Source: Patescibacteria group bacterium
GTDB taxonomy: Bacteria; Patescibacteriota; Minisyncoccia; Phycocordibacterales; JAACPR01
Assembly: GCA_022711495.1 (NCBI GenBank)
Contig: JAKLEX010000001.1
Span: forward strand, 370,171 to 434,170
DNA: 64,000 nucleotides
Direction: 5' to 3'
Part shown: one piece after another, positions 22,835 to 60,658 of the stretch
Layout of the letters: each line of letters begins with the position of its first letter
How positions within the stretch are numbered: position 1 is the stretch's first letter
Translations under genes and position numbers: made by a program
The notes under the pieces: model-generated
The model's database searches: none
Told to the model about the DNA's origin: nothing
The model's input: the letters and a program-made list of their open reading frames with translations, nothing else

Positions 22835-25800
22835 TCAATACCCCACATTAATCGTAGTTTTGAACGTCTGAACAACTGGACTGCCGACATAATTAGGCCC
22901 AGTGTGTTCCAGTCTAAGAATAATTTCAACTTGTCCCCTGTCGCTGCCAACCGGAGTTAGATTTCTAAAACTGGCGTATTGGACTTGAACATCTCTGGAG
23001 GTCAAACGTCTAGGTTCACCGTTCCCTTCCTGAATATACAAAACCCCACCTTCAACATAGAAAACGGTCTCAACGTCATCTTTAACAAAGGTAATCGTAG
23101 ATATACCCACCTGGGACAAAACGGTTGAGCCCCAGACAGACAAAGGATCTCTCAAAAAAGTAGTTTCGTGTTCATCTGCCAAAACAACGCTAGAAGTTCC
23201 GTCTAGTCCAAGTTTTATTGTCTTTCCGACAGAATCATATTCTCCCATTTCTTCCTGAAGAGAATATTCCGGATATACGCAAAGAACTTGGCCTTCTGGA
23301 ATCTCAACGGAATCTGAAAATTCAGCTGTACCACTAGCGTCATCAAGATCAACGGCCACGCCAAAAGGACTATCTTCGTCAAAACTTTCAACTTCAGCGG
23401 AGCTTTCTGGGCAAACAGACGAAGATGTTCCTGTCTCTAATACATAGTTCAGTTGAACATCATCAATATATTCTGGTTCTAGAGTTCCGAATTGTGTGAG
23501 AGTTATTTCTTCAATTGTGTCAGTTCCAGATTCTTTATAAAAGACAAAGGCACCATCAAGAGCAACATCAGCGTCCCCCGGATCAATTGCCGTCACGTGA
23601 CGACCGACGGTGGTGGCAATTAGGTTGCCTGTAGAAATTGAAGTTATGTCCCAGTTTATGTTATTGCCACTATCAAGACCGGTCGTCTCAATTACCAAGA
23701 CGTTAATGTTATTAGAATCCTGAACATCAACATAAGTTATGGCTCGAACACCTTGTGGGTCAATACTCCATTGTGTATCGGGAGTTGAAGATCTTAACAT
23801 CAGTAAATTAGATTCGTCAGAGCCAGACATGGTGGTGGTGCCAGCAACAGTGTATGTGCTTCCAGCGGTAAATGTCGCGGTCGTTGGTGTAGTTGTGGCT
23901 ATAATATTTAGATTTTGATAGGACCACGCCGGATTGATTGTCAGGGTATCCGAACCGCTGTATTCAACAGTAGAGCCGGTGTTCATGGTAACTGAACCAG
24001 TGACAGTTTCGGCACCGGTGAGACGTAGAGTGCCGCCGGATTGTGAAAAGCCACCATTGAACGTCGCGTTGACGCCGTTTAAGTCAACAACGCCAGTAGA
24101 AAGATTTAGGCCGTAACCGGCGAGGGCCTTTAGCCATGTGACCGTCCCGGAACCAGTCAGAGTTATGGTGGCCGATTCATTATTAAGGGTGGTCTTTGGC
24201 ATGTAGGCTCCAGCGGCAATATTTACACTTTGAGCTTCACCTCCATCAATGAGGAAACCAATTTTATAATAAGTGGTATTTACCCCATCAAATGTTGAGT
24301 TGACGACAACCGGACCTTCGGCGTTGAAAGTCGCGTCACCGGCACTAATTTTATAAAATCTCCCATTAGTTAGGGTCGTCGTGGCATTAACAATAAAGGG
24401 ATAGTTGTTCGCTAATGTTAATTGGACGTTGTTATCTTTATTAAACTCAAATTCATAAAACTCCACCGTGTCATCAGTGGTGAATGCCGCATTGGTGGCC
24501 CCGCTGATTATGACTTTCCCGTTGTTATGATCAAAAAAACCATCATCAGAAACAATGAGGCTGCCAGTGAGAGTCAGCAGATCTGATGGCGCTAAAAATG
24601 TCCCGCTTGAAATAGTGAGACTATTTAACGATTCATTGGGTGCGGTGGAATTTGTGAAAGAGCCGCCGGTAATTTCAAATGTTCCTCCGGCCCTGATCGT
24701 ACCGGAACCGCCAATAAAGGTCCCACCACTCTGCGAAAATCCGCCTGTAAAGACGGCATTTACACCATTTAGGTCAACCGTTCCATTTTGAATATATAGA
24801 CCGTAGCCTGTTGCTCCTGGCCATGTAGTAGTTCCGGAACCAGTTAGGGTTATGGTGGTTAACTCATTATTAAGCGTAGTTCTTGGCATATAGGCTCCAG
24901 CAGGCAAATTAAAACTCTGATCTACTTCCCCATCAATTAGAAAATTAACTCTATAATAAGATGTATTTACCCCATCAAATGTTGAGTTGACGACAACCGG
25001 ACCTTCGGCGTTGAAAGTCGCGTCACCGGCACTAATTTTATAAAATCTCCCATTAGTTAGGGTCGTCGTGGCATTAACAATAAAGGGATAGTTGTTCGCT
25101 AATGTTAATTGGACGTTGTTATCTTTATTAAACTCAAATTCATAAAACTCCACCGTGTCATCAGTGGTGAATGCCGCATTGGTGGCCCCGCTGATTATGA
25201 CTTTCCCGTTGTTATGATCAAAAAAACCATCATCAGAAACAATGAGGCTGCCAGTGAGAGTCAGCAGATCTGATGGCGCTAAAAATGTCCCGCTTGAAAT
25301 AGTGAGACTATTTAACGATTCATTGGGTGCGGTGGAATTTGTGAAAGAGCCGCCGGTAATTTCAAATGTTCCTCCGGCCCTGATCGTACCGGAACCGCCA
25401 ATAAAGGTCCCACCACTCTGCGAAAATCCGCCTGTAAAGACGGCATTTACACCATTTAGGTCAACCGTTCCATTTTGAATATATAGACCGTAGCCTGTTG
25501 CTCCTGGCCATGTAGTAGTTCCGGAACCAGTTAGGGTTATGGTGGTTAACTCATTATTAAGCGTAGTTCTTGGCATATAGGCTCCAGCAGGCAAATTAAA
25601 ACTCTGATCTACTTCCCCATCAATGAGGAAGTTAACGGCCGGAAAGTTTGATCTAACCCCATCAAATGTTGAGTTGACTACTATGGGACCCTCGGCCTTA
25701 ACAGTAGACATTGATCCGCTACTGTGAAATCGACCATCGGTTAATGTGGTTGTTGCTTTAACAGTGAAGAGATCTCCAGTGGCCAACACTAAATACGCCC

Positions 25801-26272
25801 CATTGGTCTTACTAAACTCAAACTCATAGAAATCTACACCGGCAGGTGGGGCATCAAAAGTCGCGCTACCACCGCTGGCGATAATTTTACCGCTATTATG
25901 GTCGAAAGCATCTTCTTCAACAATTGTAAAATTTCCGGAAATAGTCAGGGTATTCCCTGTCCCCGGAGCCGTGAACGTCCCTGTATATCCGGCCTGCATT
26001 GTCAGAGAGGCAATAGACCAGCTACCAGTAGAAGTGGCATCATTGGTACAAGACGAGGTGAAATAAACGGCATCGCTAGCACCCGGAACAGATGCGCCAC
26101 CGCTAACGCCGCAATCATTTGCCGCTGTTGACCAGTTAGCCGAATCCAAGACATCACCACCATCAGAGCCAACCCAGTAACGACTGGCCGCCTGACCAGT
26201 TTTGGCAAAAGCAAAAAGAAAAAGCGCGACCACTAGAAACTTAAATAGTTTTCTAAAGTTCATTATAAACAA
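22835..26272 (-). CDS. Large secreted repeat-containing surface protein (1145 aa; Thr/Gly/Asn-rich, likely beta-solenoid/adhesin-like)
   Basis: N-terminal signal peptide (MFIMNFRKLFKFLVVALFLFAFAKTGQAAS). About 3.5 copies of a ~229-aa repeat, two of them identical. Composition is typical of beta-helix adhesins. No LPXTG motif was seen. Confidence 0.7.
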   Translation of the reverse strand: MFIMNFRKLFKFLVVALFLFAFAKTGQAASRYWVGSDGGDVLDSANWSTAANDCGVSGGASVPGASDAVYFTSSCTNDATSTGSWSIASLTMQAGYTGTFTAPGTGNTLTISGNFTIVEEDAFDHNSGKIIASGGSATFDAPPAGVDFYEFEFSKTNGAYLVLATGDLFTVKATTTLTDGRFHSSGSMSTVKAEGPIVVNSTFDGVRSNFPAVNFLIDGEVDQSFNLPAGAYMPRTTLNNELTTITLTGSGTTTWPGATGYGLYIQNGTVDLNGVNAVFTGGFSQSGGTFIGGSGTIRAGGTFEITGGSFTNSTAPNESLNSLTISSGTFLAPSDLLTLTGSLIVSDDGFFDHNNGKVIISGATNAAFTTDDTVEFYEFEFNKDNNVQLTLANNYPFIVNATTTLTNGRFYKISAGDATFNAEGPVVVNSTFDGVNTSYYRVNFLIDGEVDQSFNLPAGAYMPRTTLNNELTTITLTGSGTTTWPGATGYGLYIQNGTVDLNGVNAVFTGGFSQSGGTFIGGSGTIRAGGTFEITGGSFTNSTAPNESLNSLTISSGTFLAPSDLLTLTGSLIVSDDGFFDHNNGKVIISGATNAAFTTDDTVEFYEFEFNKDNNVQLTLANNYPFIVNATTTLTNGRFYKISAGDATFNAEGPVVVNSTFDGVNTTYYKIGFLIDGGEAQSVNIAAGAYMPKTTLNNESATITLTGSGTVTWLKALAGYGLNLSTGVVDLNGVNATFNGGFSQSGGTLRLTGAETVTGSVTMNTGSTVEYSGSDTLTINPAWSYQNLNIIATTTPTTATFTAGSTYTVAGTTTMSGSDESNLLMLRSSTPDTQWSIDPQGVRAITYVDVQDSNNINVLVIETTGLDSGNNINWDITSISTGNLIATTVGRHVTAIDPGDADVALDGAFVFYKESGTDTIEEITLTQFGTLEPEYIDDVQLNYVLETGTSSSVCPESSAEVESFDEDSPFGVAVDLDDASGTAEFSDSVEIPEGQVLCVYPEYSLQEEMGEYDSVGKTIKLGLDGTSSVVLADEHETTFLRDPLSVWGSTVLSQVGISTITFVKDDVETVFYVEGGVLYIQEGNGEPRRLTSRDVQVQYASFRNLTPVGSDRGQVEIILRLEHTGPNYVGSPVVQTFKTTINVGY
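24278..25624. repeat. Perfect tandem duplication inside the surface-protein gene: two ~660 bp copies with 687 bp period (229 codons)
   Basis: Nucleotide stretches starting near 24283 and 24970 are identical for about 660 bp. The two identical antisense ORF-track entries 24555..24791 and 25242..25478 are offset by exactly 687 nt. Boundaries are approximate. Confidence 0.85.
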
Positions 26273-31477: not shown

Positions 31478-32104
31478 TTAATCCATTGCCTCCGCTTCAA
31501 CTATCCACCTCTCTTCCCTAGCACCAAAGGTATTACAAGTTGAAATGGTTAATTTTTTAATATCGCTGTTAAATTTGATCAGCGCTTCATTCTCGTCAAC
31601 TAGACTGACTTTCGTGACTTTATAAAAATAATTGCTGCCGTTGGCAATCAGTTGGATTACATCACCTTCATCTAATTTATATAAATTATTAAAAACTTTG
31701 AGAGCAGAGCCCTGCGCGTTTAGATACAAATCAGCACTATGGCCAAAAATAAAGATATTGCCGTTTTCCACCGAACCGGAGCCAGGATAATGCACCGGGC
31801 CTTGGCTTAAATGAACATCAAGCTCCGCGACATTAAAAGTATCCGGCTGCTGAATTTTAGCGCCAATCCCCAATTTGCTGATAATAATTTCATCCGGACG
31901 AGTGTAAGTTCCAGTAAACCCGCCTTGAGAATAGTCAAACGGCTGACCGATTATTCCCGGAGCTTTATGAAAAAAATAATCGTATAAGCTTAAGCTTTTG
32001 GGCGCCAAGCCGGAGAGAGAAAAAACAACAAGAGAGACAACAAAGACAACGAGAAATATTTTTAGAAAAACCAGCTGTTTGTGATGGTTTGTGTTTTCTA
32101 TCAT
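31478..32104 (-). CDS. Sortase family transpeptidase
   Basis: N-terminal TM anchor. Conserved His (IFGHS), the catalytic Cys motif LTISTC and a downstream Arg (EERW). Confidence 0.7.
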   Translation of the reverse strand: MIENTNHHKQLVFLKIFLVVFVVSLVVFSLSGLAPKSLSLYDYFFHKAPGIIGQPFDYSQGGFTGTYTRPDEIIISKLGIGAKIQQPDTFNVAELDVHLSQGPVHYPGSGSVENGNIFIFGHSADLYLNAQGSALKVFNNLYKLDEGDVIQLIANGSNYFYKVTKVSLVDENEALIKFNSDIKKLTISTCNTFGAREERWIVEAEAMD

Positions 32105-39538: not shown

Positions 39539-39610
39539 GGCGTGGTGGCGAAGTGGAAACGCTGCGGTCTGCAAAACCGCCATGCGCGGGTTCGATTCCC
39601 GCCCACGCCT
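39539..39610 (+). tRNA. tRNA-Cys (anticodon GCA)
   Basis: Acceptor GGCGTGG/CCACGCC, anticodon loop CTGCAAA, T arm GCGGGTTCGATTCCCGC. Begins 3 nt after the rbfA stop. Confidence 0.8.
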
Positions 39611-39661
39611 CAATAATGTTTAAACTCCCGCGCGGGAGCCGGAACATTAGAAAAAAAATAA

Positions 39662-39743
39662 GCTCGGGTGGCGGAATTGGTATACGCGCACGACTTAAAA
39701 TCGTGTCTCGCAAGGGATGCGGGTTCGACCCCCGCCCCGAGCA
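39662..39743 (+). tRNA. tRNA-Leu (anticodon TAA), type II
   Basis: Acceptor GCTCGGG/CCCGAGC, anticodon stem CACGA/TCGTG with loop CTTAAAA, long variable arm, T arm GCGGGTTCGACCCCCGC. Confidence 0.8.
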
Positions 39744-39781
39744 CAATAAAGACGAAATTATTGAGCCGTTTTTATTGAAAC

Positions 39782-39854
39782 CCGCCCATAGCTCAGTTGG
39801 TAGAGCAGTCGCCTCTTAAGCGATTGGTCGTAGGTTCGAGTCCTACTGGGCGGA
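39782..39854 (+). tRNA. tRNA-Lys (anticodon CTT)
   Basis: D arm TAGCTCAGTTGGTAGAGC, anticodon loop CTCTTAA, T arm GTAGGTTCGAGTCCTAC. Acceptor CCGCCCA/TGGGCGG gives a C1-G72 pair, so the 5' end may be off by one. Confidence 0.7.
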
Positions 39855-39919
39855 CAAAGAAAATAATGATAGGTCAGATGCGTTAACACACGGCAAGTTT
39901 ATCTCCGTCGGTTAGCCAG

Positions 39920-41209
39920 TTAGATGGAATACCTAACAACTACAATACCCGAGCCACCATTTCCGCCATTTTGTGTATACCCACCTCCTCCTCCGCCACC
40001 GCCAGTATTTGACTCACCGTTTGAAACTTCGGCTCCATCATACTGGCCACCCTGGCCACCGCCGCCCAAACCGCCATCACCATATTCAACCGTATTTGAA
40101 TCTGTACCACCGCCTCCGCCACCGCCATAATAAGTGGCTACACCGGTAATGCTAGAGGAGATTCCATCTCCACCGTCTCCTCCACCGGCATCATATAGAG
40201 CAGAGTCGCCTATTTCTCCAGCGCCTCCTCCCCCTCCGCCAGAGCCTATGCCAGGGGCGGAGTTACCACTTCCGCCATCATTTCCTTGCGCCGGAGCAAC
40301 TTCTGGAGTATTACCCAACCCACCACTGCCGCTTGAATGAGCGCCCCCGCCACCAGAACCGCCATTGCCACCATCACTATCGCCATAGCCACCACCATAC
40401 CCTCCACCCGCGGCACTGGTTGTGTCAAAAAGACTTGCACTACCGGCATTTCCTCTGGCATCTTCAACTATCGCGCCAGCTCCTCCATCACCAATTGTTA
40501 CGGAATAGTCACCGGCATCTAGAGATTCACCATCTAATTCTATGACGCCGCCACCGCCGCCACCGCCAGCAGCATGTCTTCCTCCCCCGCCACCGCCACC
40601 AACAACCAAGATATCAGCAGTTAGAGTGGTAAGAGCGGTAAATGTATCATCGGAAGTAAATGTGTGGACACAGTACGAGCCGTCTTCGGTAACAGTTCCG
40701 CCAGTAGCATAATCGGCACAGGCATCCTCCCCTCCACCCTCTTCTTCAACCAATGAAGTTGAAGTTCCAATGACAACGCCGCCTAATCCTTGTTCTTTTG
40801 AACCTGGAGCAATCAGAGCCAGCTTATTGCCAGTCTGAAGAGCTATTTCGTAATTACCACCATTTGGATTTTCTGGTAGAGCTGAAAGATAAGTTGGAAC
40901 TAGCTCAGCTGAAAGATCAACGCAATCTGGTTCTACTGTATCACCACCGGTATCGCAGATTTCTTGGAGACTGCCATCTAATCCATCCGGCCAGTCTAGT
41001 TCGTCTATATAGTATTGTTGGACAGCTTTATGAATAGCATTTAAATCACTGGCTCTTTGAGCGTTTCTGGCTTGAGCTAGTTGTCTAGAAGGATTGATGG
41101 CCACGATAACGATCGCTGCCAAAATGGCGATAATGGCGATGACCAGAAGCATTTCCAGGAGAGTGAAACCTTTTTGAGTATTTCGTTTCGATAATTGAAA
41201 GAAAGACAT
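39920..41209 (-). CDS. Type IV pilin-like protein (class III signal/N-methylation motif) with very long glycine-rich C-terminal domain
   Basis: N-terminus MSFFQLSKRNTQKGFTLLEMLLVIAIIAILAAIVIVAI is the prepilin cleavage/methylation motif plus hydrophobic alpha1 helix. A ~120-aa pilin-like head is followed by ~270 aa dominated by poly-Gly tracts (GGGGGGG…), ending …GGSGIVVVRYSI. Confidence 0.7.
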   Translation of the reverse strand: MSFFQLSKRNTQKGFTLLEMLLVIAIIAILAAIVIVAINPSRQLAQARNAQRASDLNAIHKAVQQYYIDELDWPDGLDGSLQEICDTGGDTVEPDCVDLSAELVPTYLSALPENPNGGNYEIALQTGNKLALIAPGSKEQGLGGVVIGTSTSLVEEEGGGEDACADYATGGTVTEDGSYCVHTFTSDDTFTALTTLTADILVVGGGGGGGRHAAGGGGGGGVIELDGESLDAGDYSVTIGDGGAGAIVEDARGNAGSASLFDTTSAAGGGYGGGYGDSDGGNGGSGGGGAHSSGSGGLGNTPEVAPAQGNDGGSGNSAPGIGSGGGGGGAGEIGDSALYDAGGGDGGDGISSSITGVATYYGGGGGGGTDSNTVEYGDGGLGGGGQGGQYDGAEVSNGESNTGGGGGGGGYTQNGGNGGSGIVVVRYSI

Positions 41210-41361
41210 ATAGATAACTTATTGTTATGAACCGACTTATAAAGTTTGATGTAGATATTATACTATGGGGAGAAAAAAAATAAAGTAAGTATTGTGAGTC
41301 TATTTTTGGGTTTGAATTTAGCGGTTGTTCGTGTAATATTAATAACAGGTAAATTTGTAAA

Positions 41362-41444
41362 GCGCGGGTGGCGGAATTGGCAGACGCACTTGCCTTAGGA
41401 GCAAGCGAGGTTCCCTCGTGGAGGTTCAAGTCCTCTCCCGCGCA
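41362..41444 (+). tRNA. tRNA-Leu (anticodon TAG), type II
   Basis: Acceptor GCGCGGG/CCCGCGC, anticodon stem CTTGC/GCAAG with loop CTTAGGA, variable arm CGAGGTTCCCTCGTG, T arm GGAGGTTCAAGTCCTCT. Confidence 0.8.
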
Positions 41445-41520
41445 CAAATAAACAAAGAACGTCAGCTCAAGGGCGAGCCGGCGTTTTTTGTTTTTGTGGT
41501 ATTTCTATCTGGTGCCGTAG

Positions 41521-41615: not shown

Positions 41616-42707
41616 ATGAACGTCATTGGAGCTTGGATGATTGCGGGATGCATTGGAATTCTGGCGATTTTTTCGGCCCTCGTGGGCGTCGTCAAGGTTA
41701 AGGAAAATAAGCCAGTGGAACAACTGTCGCGCTGGACCTGGTTTGTCCTGTCGCGGTTGTTTGTTGGTGCCCTCGCCTATGCGGCGACCATCAATATTCT
41801 GGCAACTTTTTCCGATTCAGATCCAAACTGGGCTTGGTATTTCGGTGGGATCTTGGTCGGCCTAAGCGTTTTCGCCCTGATGATCGAATTGACGCACAAG
41901 TCTGCGCTCTTTCGATTGGCAGGTAATAAATTCGCGCTGGCCACCGATATCTTCTTTGGACGAAGGGCAACTTTCATCCGTGAAGATATGGATTGTGCCA
42001 TTCGGACTTACCGGATCTATCTCGGTGGTCTGAATGCCAAGTTCGACTGGGAGATCGTTGAAATCGTCGACGAATTCAATCGTGATGTGATCGACACGAT
42101 CTCCTCAACGGTAGAATTCGAAGACTCGCCGGGGCTACTCTCTGGTAAGTATACGCTAAGACCCGATCCGGAGAGATTGCAGTACTTCGCTGCGACGAAT
42201 GTCGATACCGCAAAAAGAGATGCTCTCCTAAAGGAGGCTTTTGGCGGCTACGTAAGAATGTACTTGAGTGATTTTCTCAAGACAAAAAAAATCGACGGGG
42301 CCATGGCCACTAAGGGCACCCTGTTCGACGAACTCCCTGAATCTGTCAAAACAGAGCTCCGACGCCAGGAAGAAAAGTACGGGGTCAAGTTAAACACCCG
42401 TATCATCGACAACATTGACTATCCGCCAGAACTGGCGAAGGTCAATGAGCAAATATCGGTGATGGCGCGGATACGAGAGATGGTTAACTTCCAGCTAGAG
42501 AGCTGGGGTAAGACCAAGGAGCAGATCGAGGGTAAGGCTGATCGGGGAAATGTCACGCCCGAAGAGCGGAAAGAAGCGGAAAGACTGGTGTTGGCGATTA
42601 CCGAACAGGTTCCGGAAAGGACACTTCGGCACATCATCGATGGGCGTCTCGACAGCAAAACGGCTGGCAAGATTATCCTGGGCATCAATAGCGGAAAGGA
42701 GGAATGA
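41616..42707 (+). CDS. Polytopic membrane protein with C-terminal SPFH/band-7-like region (tentative); GC-rich, probably horizontally acquired
   Basis: Three N-terminal hydrophobic helices. The C-terminal segment …GVKLNTRIIDNIDYPPELAKVNEQISVMARIREMV resembles the SPFH core (…GI.V..V.I.DI..P.EV..AM…). Codon composition is visibly GC-richer than the flanking genome. Confidence 0.45.
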   Translation: MNVIGAWMIAGCIGILAIFSALVGVVKVKENKPVEQLSRWTWFVLSRLFVGALAYAATINILATFSDSDPNWAWYFGGILVGLSVFALMIELTHKSALFRLAGNKFALATDIFFGRRATFIREDMDCAIRTYRIYLGGLNAKFDWEIVEIVDEFNRDVIDTISSTVEFEDSPGLLSGKYTLRPDPERLQYFAATNVDTAKRDALLKEAFGGYVRMYLSDFLKTKKIDGAMATKGTLFDELPESVKTELRRQEEKYGVKLNTRIIDNIDYPPELAKVNEQISVMARIREMVNFQLESWGKTKEQIEGKADRGNVTPEERKEAERLVLAITEQVPERTLRHIIDGRLDSKTAGKIILGINSGKEE

Positions 42708-43279
42708 TTATGGTCGAGCCTACCATTCGTAGCGTTGATAAGCGGACGATCCGTCTTTTCGTCTGGGCACCCCTCGGAGTGATCTTGGCGATAGTCGTCC
42801 TGATCACCGGCTATGTCCATCGGAGAGAAATCTCCGAGTGGATAACCGAGCTTGCTCGGGAAAAAACGGAGACGCGGCAACCTGTGGCAACACAGCCAGT
42901 CGCGCCTCAAAACCAGACGTCAGTCCCCCACCTGCGAGTCTACAACCTCGTACCGGGCGGAGACCACGTTTCGGTTCTATTCCGTGATTCCGAGAACGAT
43001 GCCCTCGCCTGGTACGGCGATGGCGGTTGTTACCAGGTTCGATACATTAAGCAAGACGGAATGACCTGGAACGCACCGGGCTGTATGCCGGGTGGTTGGA
43101 TCTGGGCAATCCCAGGAATCCATTGGCAAACGGTTTACCAATGGATTGGGGAACCGCTGGCCATACAGTTCAGGGTTCCGGCAACCAGGATAGAAAAGTC
43201 CTGGGGACGCAGGGTTGAGAAACCCTGCGCGCCAGTGACGCTTCACGTATCGCTGAAACCGATACGAGATCCGTCCTGA
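42704..43279 (+). CDS. Hypothetical membrane-anchored protein (1 TM plus Trp/Gly/Cys-rich ~140-aa domain), translationally coupled to the upstream gene
   Basis: ATGA overlap with the preceding ORF. TM helix FVWAPLGVILAIVVLITGYV. No recognisable family. GC-rich like its partner. Confidence 0.45.
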   Translation: MIMVEPTIRSVDKRTIRLFVWAPLGVILAIVVLITGYVHRREISEWITELAREKTETRQPVATQPVAPQNQTSVPHLRVYNLVPGGDHVSVLFRDSENDALAWYGDGGCYQVRYIKQDGMTWNAPGCMPGGWIWAIPGIHWQTVYQWIGEPLAIQFRVPATRIEKSWGRRVEKPCAPVTLHVSLKPIRDPS

Positions 43280-43411: not shown

Positions 43412-43657
43412 TTATCCGTAAATTGTATCCAGGGCCAATTTGATTATGCCGAAAACCGATACCATGATCAGCATTCCGATGAGCCCCCAGATTATGTGGC
43501 GGCGACCAGTTTCTCGAGCTTCTGGATTGCTAGCGCCCTTGATATAGTTGAAAATTCCCCACAAGAAAACAACCAGGGCTACGGCAAAAAGCAACCTTAT
43601 CAAGGGGTTAACAATAACAGAGGCGATCTTTGACAGAAAACTGTCTACTGACGACAT
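43412..43657 (-). CDS. VirB2/TrbC-like (T4SS-pilin-like) small two-helix membrane protein, paralog 1 of 6
   Basis: 81 aa. Hydrophobic helix, then …FLWGIFNYIKGASNPEARETGRRHIIWGLIGMLIMVSVFG…, the two-TM hairpin with charged loop shared by all six paralogs. Confidence 0.6.
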   Translation of the reverse strand: MSSVDSFLSKIASVIVNPLIRLLFAVALVVFLWGIFNYIKGASNPEARETGRRHIIWGLIGMLIMVSVFGIIKLALDTIYG

Positions 43658-43689
43658 AGAAGTATTTTAAGACTATTCCCAATTCTACT

Positions 43690-44028
43690 TTAGTTTGGAA
43701 TACCAGGAACATTAATTCCGCTTGTTCCGCCAGCATCAATATCCAAGGTGTCGCTTAGTAATTCAACCAATCCCCAGACAGAAACCATGACGAATAGAAC
43801 AATAATTCCGTAAATCATCACGTATCTGGCCTCCTTTCTCTTGTCATCATCCGTGGCAATAATGTATTGCAAAATTCCCCAGATGAAAACGATGACGGCG
43901 ATACCAATAACCAAAGGAATAAGAGCATCAATAATTGACTTGATCTTATCAATCACCCCTTCTATTCCGCTGGCCGCCAAAGCGACTACTGGAAACAAAG
44001 AAACCGCTAAACCTGAAATATATTTCAT
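43690..44028 (-). CDS. VirB2/TrbC-like (T4SS-pilin-like) small membrane protein, paralog 2 of 6 (with signal peptide)
   Basis: Signal peptide MKYISGLAVSLFPVVALAAS. Core …FIWGILQYIIATDDDKRKEARYVMIYGIIVLFVMVSVWGLVELL. Confidence 0.6.
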   Translation of the reverse strand: MKYISGLAVSLFPVVALAASGIEGVIDKIKSIIDALIPLVIGIAVIVFIWGILQYIIATDDDKRKEARYVMIYGIIVLFVMVSVWGLVELLSDTLDIDAGGTSGINVPGIPN

Positions 44029-44135
44029 AATTATAATCTTTAAATTTAAAAACTATTAATTAAACGATTAATAGCTATACGAGTATTATACATCAAAAGC
44101 CCAGTTAAAAACACAAGGTCCTGTGGATTTAAAAA

Positions 44136-44399
44136 CTAATAGGTAATCTGCGGAATACCGAAATTAAAGCCAAAACTATTGCTTAACATCTGGAGAATTC
44201 CCCAGACAGAAGTCATGACAAATAGCCCAATTATTCCGGCTATAATATAAGAAATGCTCTCTTTTCTCTTGTTTTCATCGTCAGAATTGAAGATATAAGC
44301 TATCAGGCCGTAAACAAAGACAAATAGAGATAGCGCGATAATGACCGTCACGATCTTGTTGCTGTAAGTTATAAGACGATTTATTAGTGTCGCGAACAT
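44136..44399 (-). CDS. VirB2/TrbC-like (T4SS-pilin-like) small membrane protein, paralog 3 of 6
   Basis: Core …FVYGLIAYIFNSDDENKRKESISYIIAGIIGLFVMTSVWGILQML. Confidence 0.6.
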   Translation of the reverse strand: MFATLINRLITYSNKIVTVIIALSLFVFVYGLIAYIFNSDDENKRKESISYIIAGIIGLFVMTSVWGILQMLSNSFGFNFGIPQITY

Positions 44400-44404
44400 G
44401 TTTA

Positions 44405-44710
44405 TTATTTTAATATTAAATTTTGTACTGATTGAGTTTGTGAGTTGGTAATATTGGCATCAGTAATACCCAGAGTTCCCTTCACCAGGGCGACCAAACC
44501 CCAAACAGAGACCATGACGAACAAAGTTATCAGCCCAAAGATTATGACCTTGGTTGAACTTTGTCGACTCTCCGCGTCTTTTGATACAACATATTTGAAA
44601 ATCCCATATATAAAAGCTAAAGTCGCAATGCTAATCAACAGACCCATCAAGCCAGATGAGCCGCCGCTACCGGAAAGAAAATTGATGATTTTACTTAATA
44701 GATTGTCCAT
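44405..44710 (-). CDS. VirB2/TrbC-like (T4SS-pilin-like) small membrane protein, paralog 4 of 6
   Basis: Core …FIYGIFKYVVSKDAESRQSSTKVIIFGLITLFVMVSVWGLVALV. Confidence 0.6.
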   Translation of the reverse strand: MDNLLSKIINFLSGSGGSSGLMGLLISIATLAFIYGIFKYVVSKDAESRQSSTKVIIFGLITLFVMVSVWGLVALVKGTLGITDANITNSQTQSVQNLILK

Positions 44711-44716
44711 GTGTTT

Positions 44717-45103
44717 TTAACTTTGGAGACCCTCAACTCCCAATTCCCCGGCGGTTTCTATGATGATATTGCTGATGGCCTGTGCGCCCAACAATACAAT
44801 CGCGCCAATAACCGTCCAGAAAAAGACGCTTTTGGCTTTTCTGATTGCCTCTTCGTTGCCCTGCGCGGTGACGAATAAGAATCCGGCGTAAATTATGGCC
44901 AAGACCACAAAGATGGCGCCAACTTTGGCGAAGACGCCTAGAATAACTCCCACTAGTTGTTGTAAGCTGCCAACTTTTGAGATCGGGTTTTGCAAACCGC
45001 TACTGCCGGCCGGGGTCTGAACACTACCATCTTGAGCGAGAACAATGCTCGGTAACAATCCCGAGACAAAAGTCGTAAGCGAATATTTTAAGTATCTGAA
45101 CAT
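44717..45103 (-). CDS. VirB2/TrbC-like (T4SS-pilin-like) membrane protein, paralog 5 of 6 (longer, with signal peptide)
   Basis: Signal peptide MFRYLKYSLTTFVSGLLPSIVLA. Core …LAIIYAGFLFVTAQGNEEAIRKAKSVFFWTVIGAIVLLGAQAISNIII matches the Gram-positive/CPR T4SS-pilin consensus as I recall it (…GGFQYITSAGD..K…A…IGLV…). The ORF track starts at 45154; I trimmed to the internal Met. Confidence 0.6.
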   Translation of the reverse strand: MFRYLKYSLTTFVSGLLPSIVLAQDGSVQTPAGSSGLQNPISKVGSLQQLVGVILGVFAKVGAIFVVLAIIYAGFLFVTAQGNEEAIRKAKSVFFWTVIGAIVLLGAQAISNIIIETAGELGVEGLQS

Positions 45104-47430: not shown

Positions 47431-49914
47431 TTACAAAGTCACAAGCGAAGCAATATTATCACCGGCACGCAATTTCATGACTCTAACTCCTTGAGTCTGG
47501 CGACCGAGGATTGGTATTTCATCCACATCAACTCGGATAACCTGGCCCTTTTTGGACATAGCCACGATTTCGTCAGTGAGTTCCGTGACAACAGCGGCGG
47601 AAATGATTTTTCCGATTTTATCGGTGACTTTCGCCGTTTTTATTCCGGATCCGCCACGTTTTTGAACTTTATATTCTTCAAGCGGGGTCTGTTTGGCAAA
47701 ACCATTCTGTGAAAAGACCAAAAGATTATTATTTTTTTCTTGCTTACTGACAGTTAGAGAAACCACGACCCGGTCCTTAGGAGAAATCTTTATGCCACGA
47801 ACACCAGCCGCGCCCCTACCCATTTCTCGAATATCTGATTCTTTGAATCGAATTGACTGACCGAGATTCGTCACGACAACCACCGTATCGTCTTTGGCTA
47901 CAAAGTGTGCCGAGATCAACTTGTCATCGCCCTTAAGCTTGATAGCGATAATACCGCTGCGTCTGACATCCGCGAAACTTTCGGCGTCAACTTTTTTGGT
48001 CACGCCCTGCCCCGTCATCATCATAACGGAAAGACTTGGCATCTTCTTTAATTCTTTCGGCACGGCTAAGACGGAAGTGATCTTCTCTTCCGGAGAGATA
48101 GACAAAAAGTTCATGATAGATTTTCCTTTGGTGGCGCGCTTTCCTTCCGGTAGATCATACATTTTGATTTGATAAACCTTTCCTTTGTCAGTGAAGAATA
48201 ATAAATCGCTGTGAGTTGTCGTATATATTAGAGTGTTAACAAAATCTTCTTCTTTAGTGTCCAAATCAATGACTCCGACGCCGCCACGTCTTTGTTTACG
48301 ATATTCATCGGGATTGGTTCGTTTGATATAGCCGCCGTTCGTCATAACCAAAACGCTTTCTTCATCAGGGACAATGTCTTCCATAGAAATGTTCTTTACG
48401 CCCCCGGCAATTATTTTTGTCTGTCGCTCATCGGCGTACTTTTGCCTGATATCTGACAATTCTTTTTTAATTAAATTACGCATTTTGGCCTCGCTCTTTA
48501 GCAGGGCTTCCAGTTCGGCGATTAATTTCTCAACCTGCAACAACTCGTCTTCAATCTTCTTTCGTTCAAGACCGGCCAGTCTCTGAAGTTTCATCTCCAA
48601 TATGGCCGTGGCTTGAAGTTCGCTGAACTTAAACTTGCTCATCAAGTTGGCGTGAGCCGTAGGGGTGTCTTTGGAGGCCTTAATCAATTTTATAATTTCA
48701 TCAATATGATCAAGGGCCTTTTTTAGACCAAGCAAGATATGCTCGCGCGCTTTGGCTTTGGCCAGATCAAATTTTGTTCGACGAGTGACGACTTCAAAAC
48801 GATGCGCGATAAATTCGTCTAAAATAGACTTGAGACCGAGAGTCTGAGGCACGCCGTCAACTAGCGCCACCATGTTGTAGTGAAAGGCTTCTTCAAGTTG
48901 AGTGTGCTTGTAAATGTAGTTGAGAATACTTTGTGGATGAGCGTTTGATTTTACGTCAATGACGACCCTGATTTCGTCGGTTGATTCATCGCGCAAACCT
49001 TTTATGCCCTCAACCTTCTTCTGCGAATGCAGTTCGGCGATTTTAGCGATAAGATCGGATTTGTTAACTCTATAAGGTATAGAAGTAATAATGATCTGGC
49101 TGTTTCCGCTCTTATCCTCAACGATTTCAGCTTCTCCTCGGCAAACTACTCCGCCACGTCCAGAAGCGTATGCGGTGTAAATATCTTTTTTATCAAAAGC
49201 CAATCCGCCCGTTGGAAAATCCGGCCCCTTAACAAATTGCAACAATTCTTCAGTGCTAGCTTTCGGGTTATCAATCAAATGAACAGTGGCATCAATTATT
49301 TCGCCCAAATTATGTGGCGGAATATTCGTGGCCATACCGACCGCGATTCCCAGAGTTCCGTTCAATAAAAGATTCGGAACGTTTGAAGGTAAAACAACCG
49401 GTTCCTTTTTGGTCGCGTCAAAGTTTTGGCGAAAATTAACTGTATCTTTTTCCAAATCGCTTAGTAGCTCTTCGGAAAGTTTGCTCATCTTGGCCTCCGT
49501 ATAACGATAGGCAGCTGGCGGATCGCCGTCTATAGAACCAAAGTTACCTTGTCCGATAACCAACGGATAGCGCATGGAAAACGGCTGAGCCATTTTAACC
49601 ATGGCGTCATAAACAGCCACGTCGCCGTGCGGGTGATAGTTACCAATGACATCTCCAACTACCGTGGCCGATTTTTTAAATTTAGCGGTGGCAGTTAAAT
49701 TCATCCGGCTCATTGAAAATAGAATTCTTCGATGAACCGGCTTCAGACCATCGCGGACATCGGGAAGCGCCCGCATGGTGATAACCGACATGGCATAATC
49801 AAGATAAGACTTTTTTACTTCTTCGCTGATTGGAGAAATAATCGGCGGATTTGTTGAGCTAGCTGACGGATTAGGTTTGCTATCTTCGCTTTTCTTGTCG
49901 ATATTTTTTGCCAT
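47431..49914 (-). CDS. gyrA: DNA gyrase subunit A
   Basis: [27 protein letters not shown] with the active-site Tyr region. C-terminal beta-pinwheel repeats. Length 827 aa. Confidence 0.95.
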
Positions 49915-58660: not shown

Positions 58661-59311
58661 CTACTTGGCGTTTAAAATTTTATTAATTCTAGCAACAGCC
58701 AAGGGCTGATTCATTCTGCCGTGTCCAACCGGATAATGCGTCGGATATACACGATATTTGGAGGAACCGATCTCTAAAATTTCAAAATTGTTTTTATGCT
58801 GACCAACTGAAATTGATTTTCCTAGAATAATTGAACTTACTTGGTTGCCAAAAGTAACGATGTGTTTAGGTCTAATGACGGCGATTTCCTCTTTCATAAG
58901 AGATAAATATTCTTTAAAAATCTGATCCTTCAGCGGACGCGCGTCAATTTGCGTACACTTGGCTAGATTCGTGACGTAGATTTTACGATCAGCCAAATAA
59001 CAATAAAGATTTTCCGAAAATTCCGGCGTCCACTGTCTTGGCGACGCGGATTGGATCAAACCAAGCAGCTTTTTTGGTATTAGTCCCAGTTCAAAAAACA
59101 GCGCCCAAATGTTTTTAGTTCCAAGCCACGGAGCTCGAATTCCTCGCCAACTTTTAACTGACGAAACGTTCCGGCCGGTTGGGTTCATAAAAATGAACAT
59201 TATTTTTGGTCGTTTTATACAGCCAGCGCCATAAATAGAACAAAGAGAGCTGTGGCCGTGGATTTTGTGAAGCCGATCAAATTTTTTGTTTAATTTAGTT
59301 ATCTGCATCAA
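58661..59311 (-). CDS. Uracil-DNA glycosylase superfamily-like protein (divergent motifs)
   Basis: UDG-fold landmarks: …IMFIFMNPTGRN… (motif A region), …VTNLAKC… and a C-terminal …THYPVGHG… (motif B-like HPS). Family not assignable by eye. Confidence 0.5.
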   Translation of the reverse strand: MMQITKLNKKFDRLHKIHGHSSLCSIYGAGCIKRPKIMFIFMNPTGRNVSSVKSWRGIRAPWLGTKNIWALFFELGLIPKKLLGLIQSASPRQWTPEFSENLYCYLADRKIYVTNLAKCTQIDARPLKDQIFKEYLSLMKEEIAVIRPKHIVTFGNQVSSIILGKSISVGQHKNNFEILEIGSSKYRVYPTHYPVGHGRMNQPLAVARINKILNAK

Positions 59312-59588
59312 AAAAATCTTTTAACGAAATCACTTGGATTCCCTTTTCTTCTATTTCTTTTTTAGACCAAAAAACTGATAGATCATCAATTTTCCACTTT
59401 CCGACAAAACCGACCGTCTTTTTCATCTCACGACCGGTATATTTTTTAGTTTTCGGATCCCATTCTTTTAAGATAAGCATGTCCCCTTCCTCTATCTCAA
59501 AATCATTTAGACGCAATTCAAATGTCTTATCGCCATTTAAAATCTTTTCAAAATATTCCGGCCAAGTTTTCTTTTCAATAATTCGCAT
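59295..59588 (-). CDS. ASCH/DUF3850-like small protein
   Basis: MRIIEKKTWPEYFEKILNGDKTFELRLNDFEIEEGDMLILKEW… resembles ASCH-type beta-barrel proteins. The ORF track starts 20 codons earlier. Confidence 0.45.
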   Translation of the reverse strand: MRIIEKKTWPEYFEKILNGDKTFELRLNDFEIEEGDMLILKEWDPKTKKYTGREMKKTVGFVGKWKIDDLSVFWSKKEIEEKGIQVISLKDFFDADN

Positions 59589-59644
59589 GCGGAAATTATA
59601 GCAAGAAAAAACCCGAGCCGTTTTGCGGTTCGGGTTATACATAA

Positions 59645-60658
59645 TCATGCCTCCCTTTCCACCCTGGTTCTATACTGCTGGGTATTTGTCAGGATCTCGG
59701 CGGTCGTATCGGCATAACGAAGCAGAATTTGAGCGGCTTCGCGAAATATCTGTTCCATGGCTGTCGTAGCCGGTCTTTTGTGCTTTTGGAAGTAACGATA
59801 TATCGTCGGGGTCAGCTGGAAATCCTCGAGTTTCATAACGAGAGCGCGAACTCGAGGAACCAAAGCCCGGAACGATTTATCATCATCGGAGGCTTTTTTC
59901 TCCCGCGGCGGTTTCTTCCCCCTCAACGACAGCCGCAAGAATTTCCCCTCGGAAATTAACCGGCGGAGCATCTCGTTGAGAACAACCGGGCTTGTCCCCT
60001 GCGCCCTCTCTTTCTCAATCTGCTGGAAAAGTTTCAACTGCTCGACCTCGGTCTTAAGCGTTGATAAACGCAAGGCCGCGGAAAAACTGATCCGATCCCT
60101 TTCAGGAGTCGGCGGATCAAGTTTCGCCAAAATGTCTGGGTGAAGTCTGGCCAGAGAAGTATAGTTGAGAACCCAACTTATCTTCTTGCCCACCGCCACG
60201 GCAATTTGATCGGCGGACATTAAGTTGGCCCGCAGAGCAATAACTGCTTTGATCTTTTCCTGGTGAGTGTGGTCAATCCGATTGAAGTTGGATATCAAAG
60301 ACAGCAGATGTTGCTGATTGAAGTCCTTTACCTGACAGATGATTATACGAATCGTCTTCAGGCCAGCCTGTTTAATGGCTCGCCAGCGCCTTTCACCGTC
60401 AATGAGTTCGTACTTCGCCCCATTGAGAGACTGCTGGAACTTTATGACCAAAACCGGCTGGGCTTGACCATTAGTTTTAATGCTTCCGGCCAAAGCCGTA
60501 AGTTCGTCCGGATCAAAATACATCCGCGGCTGATCCTTGAGCGGCGTAATTTCATCAACCGGCACCGTTAAAACCCGATTCTCCTCAACAACGAACCCGG
60601 CGTCAATCAACTGTTTCCGCGTCGCTTCCGACTTGTCCATCTGATTGCTATTTTTCAC
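59645..60658 (-). CDS. ParB/Srx-like nuclease-domain protein (337 aa) on a GC-richer islet
   Basis: ParB N-terminal-type motif …YELIDGERRWRAIKQAGLKTIRIII…, an HTH-like middle and an uncharacterised basic C-terminal domain. Visibly higher GC than neighbours. Confidence 0.55.
   Translation of the reverse strand: MKNSNQMDKSEATRKQLIDAGFVVEENRVLTVPVDEITPLKDQPRMYFDPDELTALAGSIKTNGQAQPVLVIKFQQSLNGAKYELIDGERRWRAIKQAGLKTIRIIICQVKDFNQQHLLSLISNFNRIDHTHQEKIKAVIALRANLMSADQIAVAVGKKISWVLNYTSLARLHPDILAKLDPPTPERDRISFSAALRLSTLKTEVEQLKLFQQIEKERAQGTSPVVLNEMLRRLISEGKFLRLSLRGKKPPREKKASDDDKSFRALVPRVRALVMKLEDFQLTPTIYRYFQKHKRPATTAMEQIFREAAQILLRYADTTAEILTNTQQYRTRVEREA

Follow-up and report, generated by a model that had tools for sequence, protein, structure and literature searches.

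The 64,000-nucleotide stretch of DNA analysed here (the window) encodes ribosomal proteins, aminoacyl-tRNA synthetases, a short IF-2 of 504 amino acids, FtsA and FtsZ, a sortase and tandem paralogues of a type IV secretion system (T4SS) pilin, and is housekeeping DNA of a small-genome Patescibacterium. On its minus strand, at positions 39920 to 41209, lies a gene for a protein made of two modules, an N-terminal type IV pilin and a glycine-rich C-terminal domain which, judged from its predicted fold, is a member of the domain family that forms the receptor-binding tips of tail fibres in phages. The features of this gene are as follows.

39920..41209, minus strand: coding sequence of the bimodular pilin, 429 amino acids and a stop codon, ATG start
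41168..41209, minus strand: class III leader peptide, residues 1-14 (MSFFQLSKRNTQKG); the motif matches PF07963 and TIGR02532
41108..41185, minus strand: N-methylation/alpha1-N motif, residues 9-34, with Phe15 at +1 and Glu19 at +5; profile matches
40760..41167, minus strand: mature pilin module, residues 15-150; AlphaFold2 (AF2) model, sequence matches to pilins in the PDB, and stand-alone homologues
40712..40759, minus strand: acidic/Gly linker, residues 151-166 (TSLVEEEGGGEDACAD); low predicted local distance difference test (pLDDT) score, and homology to the paralogue P0007 stops here
39923..40711, minus strand: C-terminal glycine-rich module, residues 167-429; PF21722, PHROG 2295, AF2 and Foldseek
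41257..41262, minus strand: TATAAT hexamer, candidate -10 box, a perfect match 47 nt upstream of the pilin ATG

The two modules of the protein

The protein begins with MSFFQLSKRNTQKG, a basic leader of 14 amino acids with Gly at position -1, followed by FTLLEMLLVIAIIAILAAIVIVAI, with Phe at +1, Glu at +5 and then about 20 hydrophobic residues. Cleavage by a prepilin peptidase is predicted after Gly14. The Pfam N_methyl profile PF07963 matched with 35.4 bits against a cut-off of 21.2 (E 6.9e-9), and TIGR02532 matched with 33.9 bits against a cut-off of 16.3 (E 1.8e-8). In the AF2 model the pilin module has helices at residues 17-37 and 40-70 and strands at 82-84, 121-125, 129-134 and 145-147, mostly with pLDDT values of 82-97, and its head contains a single cysteine pair, Cys85/Cys96. 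The two features by which type IV pilins are recognised, a class III signal peptide and a long alpha1 helix on a small beta-sheet head, were both found.

The family profile matched the solved geopilin, PilA, PilE and GspG by sequence with E values of 1e-13 to 1e-7, the matches covering only about the first 80 profile positions, which correspond to the signal peptide and alpha1. When residues 1-160 were used as the query, stand-alone pilins of 140-190 amino acids were recovered with 45-66% identity over 75-95% of the query, and some of these carry the JGI name PilA. The model for the major pseudopilin GspG of type II secretion systems (TIGR01710) scored 44.1 bits, below its equivalog cut-off of 88.85, and the models for the competence pilins ComGC-GF scored 18.7-30.4 bits, below cut-offs of 49-80. 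By sequence and predicted fold, residues 1-150 appear to be a complete PilA-like pilin of the type IV pilin class. A reading of the letters without database searches (the sequence-only reading) had proposed a class III signal peptide and a type IV pilin-like head, and on both points the profiles, the PDB matches and the AF2 model agree with it.

The same reading had described a glycine-rich C-terminal part of about 270 residues ending in GIVVVRYSI. The measured length is 269 residues and the C-terminus is GSGIVVVRYSI. Glycine makes up 35% of residues 151-429 and 40% of residues 196-429, with 11 runs of at least three glycines, the longest of them G8. This part matched PF21722 (Gly_rich_2) with 74 bits against a cut-off of 24.3, residues 196-427 aligning to profile positions 15-225 of 226, and the protein matched PHROG 2295, a group without an assigned function, with an E value of 2.8e-58. 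An exhaustive HMMER search with residues 161-429 returned 16,916 clusters at 50% identity with E<=1e-3, and 7,141 at E<=1e-10. Many of the matched proteins are giant, with up to 12 copies of the domain, which occurs in phage proteins and in giant non-pilin proteins as well as here.

The whole protein was modelled by AF2 from an alignment of 83 sequences with a mean pLDDT of 90.9, and residues 155-160 formed the sole internal stretch of low confidence. The domain alone gave a pLDDT of 96.3 and a predicted template modelling score (pTM) of 0.93. The domain model consists of 13 short beta-strands alternating with long segments which DSSP labels neither helix nor strand, although their pLDDT exceeds 93; polyglycine/polyproline-II strands would have this appearance in a model. 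Twelve glycine-dense segments were counted. In an alignment of 53 sequences the glycine columns had a mean entropy of 1.0 bit against 2.56 bits for the non-glycine columns, and insertions and deletions clustered between the motifs. Such a conserved scaffold with variable loops is the pattern of the phage adhesins. The domain contains 32 Asp or Glu residues against three Lys or Arg, as well as 12 Tyr, and this strongly acidic composition argues against DNA binding.

To compare folds, the AF2 model was run with Foldseek against the PDB and against predicted viral structures (BFVD). Four PDB chains matched at E<=1e-3, and all were from phage proteins, two from the Pam3 fibre and two from the Bxb1 tail tip. 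The Pam3 tail fibre chain 7ypx_A was found with an E value of 1.2e-5, a probability of 1.00, template modelling (TM) scores of 0.49/0.52 and 23% identity, and 7yfw_a was found likewise. The Bxb1 tail-tip chain 9d93_Qb matched with an E value of 1.3e-5 and TM scores of 0.42/0.48, and 9d93_Qa also matched (E about 1e-5). The glycine-rich domains of ALK/LTK came next as a weak group, with E values of 0.02-0.08, TM scores of about 0.2 and probabilities of 0.1-0.9. Among the viral models there were 233 matches at E<=1e-3. The best were 42-47% identical, their root-mean-square deviations (rmsd) being 1.5-1.8 A, the top model having 42% identity and an rmsd of 1.5 A over 285 columns; they came from uncultured tailed phages, cyanophage S-TIM4, Pelagibacter phage HTVC025P, Halorubrum phage HF2 and prasinoviruses. 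A comparison of the domain with solved structures by sequence alone was not significant (Pam3, E 0.68).

According to the model, residues 167-429 form a folded beta-sandwich with loops that carry about 12 conserved glycine motifs. The sequence-only reading had considered this part far from a normal pilin head, a flexible or beta-solenoid appendage reminiscent of PGRS-type surface proteins. None of these descriptions survived. The head belongs to an existing and very large family (PF21722 and PHROG 2295, with the number of clusters given above), and the compact, confidently modelled domain, whose fold matches phage fibre tips and not beta-helices, excludes a beta-solenoid or a disordered tract; its solved relatives are phage tail-fibre and tail-tip proteins. 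There was no PE or PGRS family among the Pfam or NCBIfam matches and the N-terminus is that of a pilin, so that the resemblance to PGRS proteins is one of composition only.

Low-complexity glycine runs and a local rise in GC content (0.53 against about 0.42) might indicate that the gene is an artefact of sequencing or assembly, or a non-functional low-complexity open reading frame (ORF). However, the rise in GC is due to the first and second codon positions, which reach 0.70 and 0.65 in the glycine-rich domain, and the GC content of third positions (GC3) stays at 0.33. The glycine codons are mixed (GGT 39, GGC 39, GGA 27 and GGG 7), perfect trinucleotide repeats reach 9 nt at most, and Tandem Repeats Finder (TRF) reported just short, low-scoring arrays. 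Contigs from four samples (ENA ERZ795054; JGI 3300009776, 3300025715 and 3300010429) were 100% identical to the window over 11-21 kb, and the pilin gene lies inside three of them. At 90% identity the protein's cluster contains one sequence only, and no length variants of the glycine tract were on record in that cluster or in the independent assemblies. The slippage or artefact that the sequence-only reading had allowed for is ruled out by these results and, together with the strong family matches and the confident fold, they refute the artefactual explanation, to which we attach practically no weight.

The identical protein is deposited at NCBI (HRY30975.1 / HRZ34586.1) from a Candidatus Paceibacterota metagenome-assembled genome (MAG), annotated as 'prepilin-type N-terminal cleavage/methylation domain-containing protein', and a database search returned more than 4000 homologues. 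The gene is therefore already known in a generic form, and what it represents is a widespread but undescribed architecture rather than a unique oddity. ORFs for poly-Pro on the opposite strand are frame shadows of the glycine codons. Within the glycine-rich domain we observed a weak family of DNA repeats with a period of 120-123 nt and 60-70% identity. The internal periodicity of the domain is suggestive at best, the protein-level autocorrelation at lag 41 reaching only z=2.4.

Exchanged heads and an insertion in a tRNA array

For one paralogue, P0007, the recorded contig (554,705 bp) is the one that also carries the window protein. The two proteins are 84% identical over residues 39-162, with a DNA identity of 76.6% in the shared part, and diverge exactly at the linker GGGED. 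Homologues of the stalk with 55-68% identity bear LamG (PF13385), Fib_succ_major (PF09603), PF22434, fn3 or unassigned heads. The same exchange was seen between genomes at a syntenic locus, where a pilin gene stands between an SLT-like gene and the genes for L31 and RF-1. At this position GCA_964402215 has a Gly_rich_2 pilin (P0003) and another genome has a pilin of 329 amino acids with an unrelated head (P0059), and the similarity of the two (56%) stops where the pilin module ends. Out of the 120 top homologues of the full protein, 49 had a prepilin motif and multiple runs of five or more glycines. The pilin-Gly_rich_2 fusion is common, and the gene is an ordinary member of a large uncharacterised class. 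Within the lineage a single pilin stalk is retained and heads are swapped at the linker, and this may provide a repertoire of adhesins.

The public gene call for P0007 (L007:9926-10852), of 283 amino acids, starts too far downstream, and extension of the ORF in the upstream direction brings in a class III signal peptide (…SQSGFTLLEMLLVIAIIAILAAIVIVAINP…). Beyond the pilin module that the two proteins have in common, P0007 has a Cys-rich head that looks like a diverged second copy of the pilin head, with 30% identity to residues 49-137. Next comes a protein of 455 amino acids for which Pfam gave no match; P0007 and this protein are together syntenic with P0057 and a 458-amino-acid protein in L018. 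At L019:10001-12084 a stand-alone pilin of the stalk family (P0294, 189 amino acids) is followed directly by an RVT_1 reverse transcriptase gene (409 amino acids), and a second RVT_1 is present at the start of that locus. The reverse transcriptase could be part of a group II intron or of a diversity-generating retroelement acting on surface proteins.

The window gene lies between the tRNA-Cys/Leu/Lys cluster and tRNA-Leu(tag), where the sequence-only reading had placed it. The features of this site are as follows.

39539..39855, plus strand: tRNA-Cys(gca), tRNA-Leu(taa) and tRNA-Lys(ctt); ARAGORN and Rfam agree, and the array is conserved in relatives
39866..41330, no strand assigned: lineage-specific inserted segment of about 1.46 kb, containing only the pilin gene and its upstream region; blastn against L008, L009, L010 and L011
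41331..41339, plus strand: GTGTAATAT motif, 22 nt upstream of tRNA-Leu(tag); comparison of intergenic sequences
41362..41445, plus strand: tRNA-Leu(tag), the fourth member of the array; ARAGORN and Rfam agree

Syntenic regions of four related MAGs were fetched using IF-2 as the anchor, the IF-2 proteins being 73-82% identical. The four tRNAs are contiguous in three of the four relatives, with 57-95 bp between tRNA-Lys and tRNA-Leu(tag), and the fourth (L010) has 3.2 kb of unrelated cargo in this gap. By blastn, similarity between the window and its relatives ends at 39856-39865 and resumes at the promoter-like motif of tRNA-Leu(tag) and the tRNA itself. The uninterrupted array in three relatives and the different cargo in the fourth therefore indicate that the pilin gene is a lineage-specific insertion. 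The closest relative has no pilin gene at the tRNA array, and its Gly_rich_2 pilin is located elsewhere. The GTGTAATAT motif, or one nearly identical to it, precedes tRNA-Leu(tag) in all four relatives, which suggests that it is the putative -10 element of the tRNA itself. If so, the insertion lies between two transcription units, and the pilin gene appears to have entered, on the opposite strand, a permissive gap between them.

The cargo in L010 (L010:8393-11574) consists of three minus-strand ORFs of 317, 197 and 177 amino acids, of which the 197-amino-acid product is a NUDIX protein (E 3e-13). In L009 a second copy of the tRNA-Leu(tag) 3' end was found about 150 bp downstream of the tRNA (L009:10530-10559; 93.5% over 31 nt). 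This is the kind of scar that an integrative element leaves, and it suggests that the tRNA has been used as an integration site in the lineage.

No recombinase, integrase or transposase gene was found within 10 kb of the pilin gene, the window has a single copy of the tRNA-Leu(tag) 3' end, and no att-type direct repeats flank the insert. The comparison documents a presence/absence polymorphism, and the marks of a tRNA-associated integrative element are missing from the site. Of the suggestion that the gene is accessory and possibly mobile, the first half holds, the gene being absent from three of four relatives and replaced by different cargo in the fourth; mobility is unproven, as no integrase, att repeat or transposase was found.

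It might be argued that the gene is derived from a phage, as a tail-fibre remnant or a recent capture, that the insertion is the scar of a mobile element, and that its product has a part in phage biology or phage exclusion rather than in a pilus. Viruses have many members of the domain family (233 BFVD matches and PHROG 2295), the tRNA array which received the insertion is a variable site in relatives, and two ORFs just past tRNA-Leu(tag) have foreign codon usage, with a GC3 of 0.60 and strong Shine-Dalgarno sequences. However, neither an integrase, an att-type repeat nor other phage genes were found nearby. The pilin gene has a host-like GC3 of 0.33 and lacks a Shine-Dalgarno sequence, like most genes here; its N-terminal half is 84% identical to the chromosomal paralogue P0007; and no relatives of the domain above 55% identity were found, either phage or cellular. 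We therefore regard an origin of this kind as highly improbable. A recent transfer from a phage, in particular, is unsupported, given the host-like GC3, the missing Shine-Dalgarno sequence and domain homologues that are all at or below 55% identity.

A probable role in host binding

How cells of the Patescibacteria, or candidate phyla radiation (CPR), choose and hold their host cells is largely obscure, and type IV pili are the best candidates for this task. The protein described here joins a PilA-like pilin, through a linker, to a domain of the phage-fibre type, and thus fits the definition of a 'modular pilin' given by Raynaud et al. 2021. That paper (PMC8179133) reports more than 1,200 modular pilins in 264 architectures, many of them from CPR bacteria, and describes them as widespread and adhesion-mediating and, its authors argue, probably exposed at the pilus tip. 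PilB (vWA) and PilC (lectin) of Streptococcus sanguinis, as presented there, are built in the same way: a class III signal peptide precedes a small pilin module, which a short linker connects to a bulky functional module without specific ties to pilus biology. The CPR modular pilins with LamG (PF13385) that the paper lists are direct homologues of the stalk of this protein. Unlike the modules of PilB and PilC, the grafted module here is a glycine-rich domain of the beta-sandwich/polyglycine-II (PGII) type, PF21722, of which the available text makes no mention. That source also credits S. sanguinis PilB with demonstrated adhesion, and the present protein may be adhesive too. In the literature library that was searched, no paper was found that mentions PF21722/Gly_rich_2, that joins a pilin with polyglycine, or that brings together pilins, glycine-rich sequence and CPR bacteria.

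The closest solved counterpart of residues 161-429 is Pam3 gp24 (7YPX/7YFW). Its glycine-rich domain has 12 glycine-rich motifs in a four-layer lattice with a poorly conserved distal tip, and the authors proposed polar residues of this tip as receptor-binding sites (PMC9608196). The two proteins have in common the beta-sandwich, which in the solved Pam3 homologue is TNF-like, the 12 glycine-rich motifs, the conserved glycines and the variable distal residues. They differ in their carriers. Pam3 gp24 forms a homotrimer through an N-terminal coiled coil, depends on the chaperone gp25 and sits on the phage baseplate, whereas the carrier here is a monomeric pilin; the coiled-coil N-domain is absent and no gp25-like gene was found adjacent to the pilin gene. 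The second-best solved match is the Bxb1 tail-tip protein (9D93 Qa/Qb), which has been reinterpreted as a glycine-rich polyproline-II (PPII) helical bundle in a 2026 paper that describes such bundles in the Pam3 fibre, Bxb1 gp33/gp29, S16 gp38 and ALK (PMC13243192). From the same paper, chains Qa and Qb are most likely the Bxb1 gp33 'wing brush'. Unlike the pilin-borne module, these chains are a component of a phage virion.

More distant comparisons concern ALK/LTK and S16 gp38. The Pam3 fibre has been compared with S16 gp38, and Pam3 gp24 superposes on C. elegans ALK (PMC9608196). The ALK/LTK domain shares with ours a general design, in which a TNF-like sandwich with a polyglycine-II lattice binds a protein ligand, but it has no sequence similarity to the glycine-rich domain and its Foldseek probabilities were mostly below 0.4. 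The likeness is at most an analogy of design, and homology is not demonstrated. S16 gp38 (6F45, PF05268) is alike in its conserved glycine-rich PGII sandwich scaffold and its hypervariable receptor-binding distal segments, but has 10 motifs and a beta-helix where the present domain is compared with a TNF-like sandwich. No match to PF05268 (GP38) was obtained at E<=1, and 6F45 appeared in neither Foldseek list. The pilin protein works in a manner similar to gp38 but stands outside the gp38 family.

A patescibacterial parallel is provided by TM7x (Nanosynbacter lyticus), the one case open to genetics. Its thin T4P-2 pilus cannot bind the host without PilX2, a minor pilin that has an additional domain at the C-terminus (PMC12206443). 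PilX1 and PilX2 are likewise patescibacterial pilins with extra C-terminal domains. Their heads are different, however (a beta-propeller and a jelly roll), they have no predicted PilD site where the protein described here has a canonical one, and they belong to a different class of Patescibacteria.

Because of the phage homologues, the modular pilin precedents and PilX2 of TM7x, we propose that the protein is a bimodular type IV pilin which probably acts as a pilus-displayed adhesin for the surface of a host. In this scheme prepilin peptidase would cut after Gly14, and the type IV pilus machinery would then build the subunit into the filament via alpha1. The glycine-rich module would be displayed outward, most likely at the tip or as part of a low-abundance subunit, and its hypervariable, acidic, Tyr-rich loops would attach to some structure on the surface of the episymbiont's partner (host) cell. 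Head swaps on the constant stalk would diversify the specificity of binding. Paceibacteria MAGs have been reported to encode pilBCDMT, and type IV pili are reported to be well conserved in Patescibacteria and used for host binding.

Several observations weigh against this proposal. Genes for pilB, pilC, pilD, pilM, pilN, pilO and pilT were found neither in the window nor in the 20-kb surroundings of seven related pilin genes (P0007, P0009, P0003, P0059, P0057, P0294 and P0268, inspected by Pfam annotation), so that the pilin genes of this lineage appear as scattered orphans. The pilin module resembles major-type (PilA-like) pilins and not the known tip minor pilins, which makes a location at the tip a guess. 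For PF21722 domains outside phage fibres we know of no ligand. The similarity to ALK/LTK is weak, and S16 gp38 is missing from the Foldseek results. Lastly, the lone TATAAT is the sole promoter-like feature of the gene; this candidate -10 box was missed by a consensus scan and is weak evidence, and neither a good -35 box nor a Shine-Dalgarno sequence was found upstream of the gene.

The orphan position of the gene and its relatives among housekeeping genes, never beside machinery genes in the neighbourhoods inspected, would also fit a surface-anchored binding protein, which would use the class III signal peptide for export and membrane anchoring only, as in an archaeal 'bindosome' or a short pseudopilus, with no long retractile pilus. 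The weak similarity to GspG/ComG pseudopilins points in the same direction, as does the bulk of the head, since 263 amino acids on a PilA-like stalk could pack poorly in the body of a filament. However, the GspG and ComG models scored far below their cut-offs, alpha1 and the pilin head are highly similar to those of stand-alone PilA-like pilins, and the reported conservation of type IV pili for host binding in Patescibacteria speaks for a true pilus. We consider an anchored protein of this type unlikely.

The PilA-like character of the module, which is that of a major pilin, and the flexible linker could instead mean that the protein repeats along a distinct thick pilus as its major subunit, each copy with a glycine-rich head, and that binding domains sheathe the filament. 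We know of no type IV pilus built from a major subunit of 415 amino acids. Moreover, a genome has several paralogues that share the stalk and differ in the head, which is more in keeping with exchangeable subunits of low abundance. Raynaud et al. (PMC8179133) allow for modular pilins in the filament body, given a flexible enough linker. On balance a pilus of this construction seems improbable to us.

These results show an entire pilin lineage with a domain that in phages sits where the tail fibres recognise their receptors, at the tips, and heads that are swapped on a constant stalk. Glycine-rich pilin heads are concrete and testable candidates for a determinant of host specificity. They point to a toolbox shared by phages and episymbionts, and to a likely role for PF21722, a family of very large size (about 17,000 clusters at 50% identity) that is still uncharacterised. 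A broader scenario, which we offer tentatively and hold to be rather doubtful, is that ultrasmall, episymbiotic Patescibacteria and viruses share one receptor-binding module: a PGII-lattice tip domain would have been grafted onto type IV pilins many times and swapped like a cassette at a fixed linker, and the host would be recognised by a phage-type adhesin at the end of a retractile pilus. Were this true, the host range of CPR bacteria would be set by the hypervariable loops of the domain, as in the fibres of T-even phages and cyanophages, and the copies fused to pilins would represent the fold in a monomeric form that needs no chaperone. The glycine-rich lattice fold also interests protein engineers, for whom a monomeric version fused to a soluble pilin head could be an easier model than trimeric phage fibres.

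Other features of the window

Immediately after tRNA-Leu(tag), at 41616-43279 on the plus strand, are two overlapping ORFs of 363 and 191 amino acids for which Pfam gave no match. With a GC3 of 0.60-0.61 and strong Shine-Dalgarno sequences (AAAGGAGAAGG and GGAAAGGAGGA) they differ from the surrounding housekeeping genes, whose GC3 is 0.36-0.47 and which mostly lack such sequences. The segment looks like a foreign islet, yet L010 has a 391-amino-acid homologue of the first ORF at the equivalent position (L010:12769-13944). For most of the housekeeping genes no Shine-Dalgarno sequence could be recognised in the 25 nt that precede the start codon (for example upstream of 4217, 19338, 37686, 47431-49914 and 55246), and the pilin gene is alike in this respect. 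Codon usage unlike that of the rest of the window was also seen at 59295-60658 on the minus strand, where a ParB_N-domain gene with a GC3 of 0.59, a GTG start and the Shine-Dalgarno sequence GAGGAG is followed by a DUF3850 gene; this may be another acquired segment.

Three to four small tandem paralogues matching PF18895 (T4SS_pilin) occupy 43412-45103 on the minus strand, with DNA repeats between the copies (43771-43851 and 44199-44279, 73%). They belong to the conjugation-type pilins known from Patescibacteria and have no relation to the type IV pilin reported here. At 22835-26272, also on the minus strand, an ORF of 1145 amino acids with 11% glycine and no Pfam family above the cut-off contains an internal tandem duplication, in which 24144-25009 and 24831-25696 are 94% identical at an offset of 687 nt. 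A sortase gene (PF04203) lies among housekeeping genes at 31478-32104 on the minus strand, and is consistent with a monoderm-type envelope and with a second, pilus-independent route of surface display.

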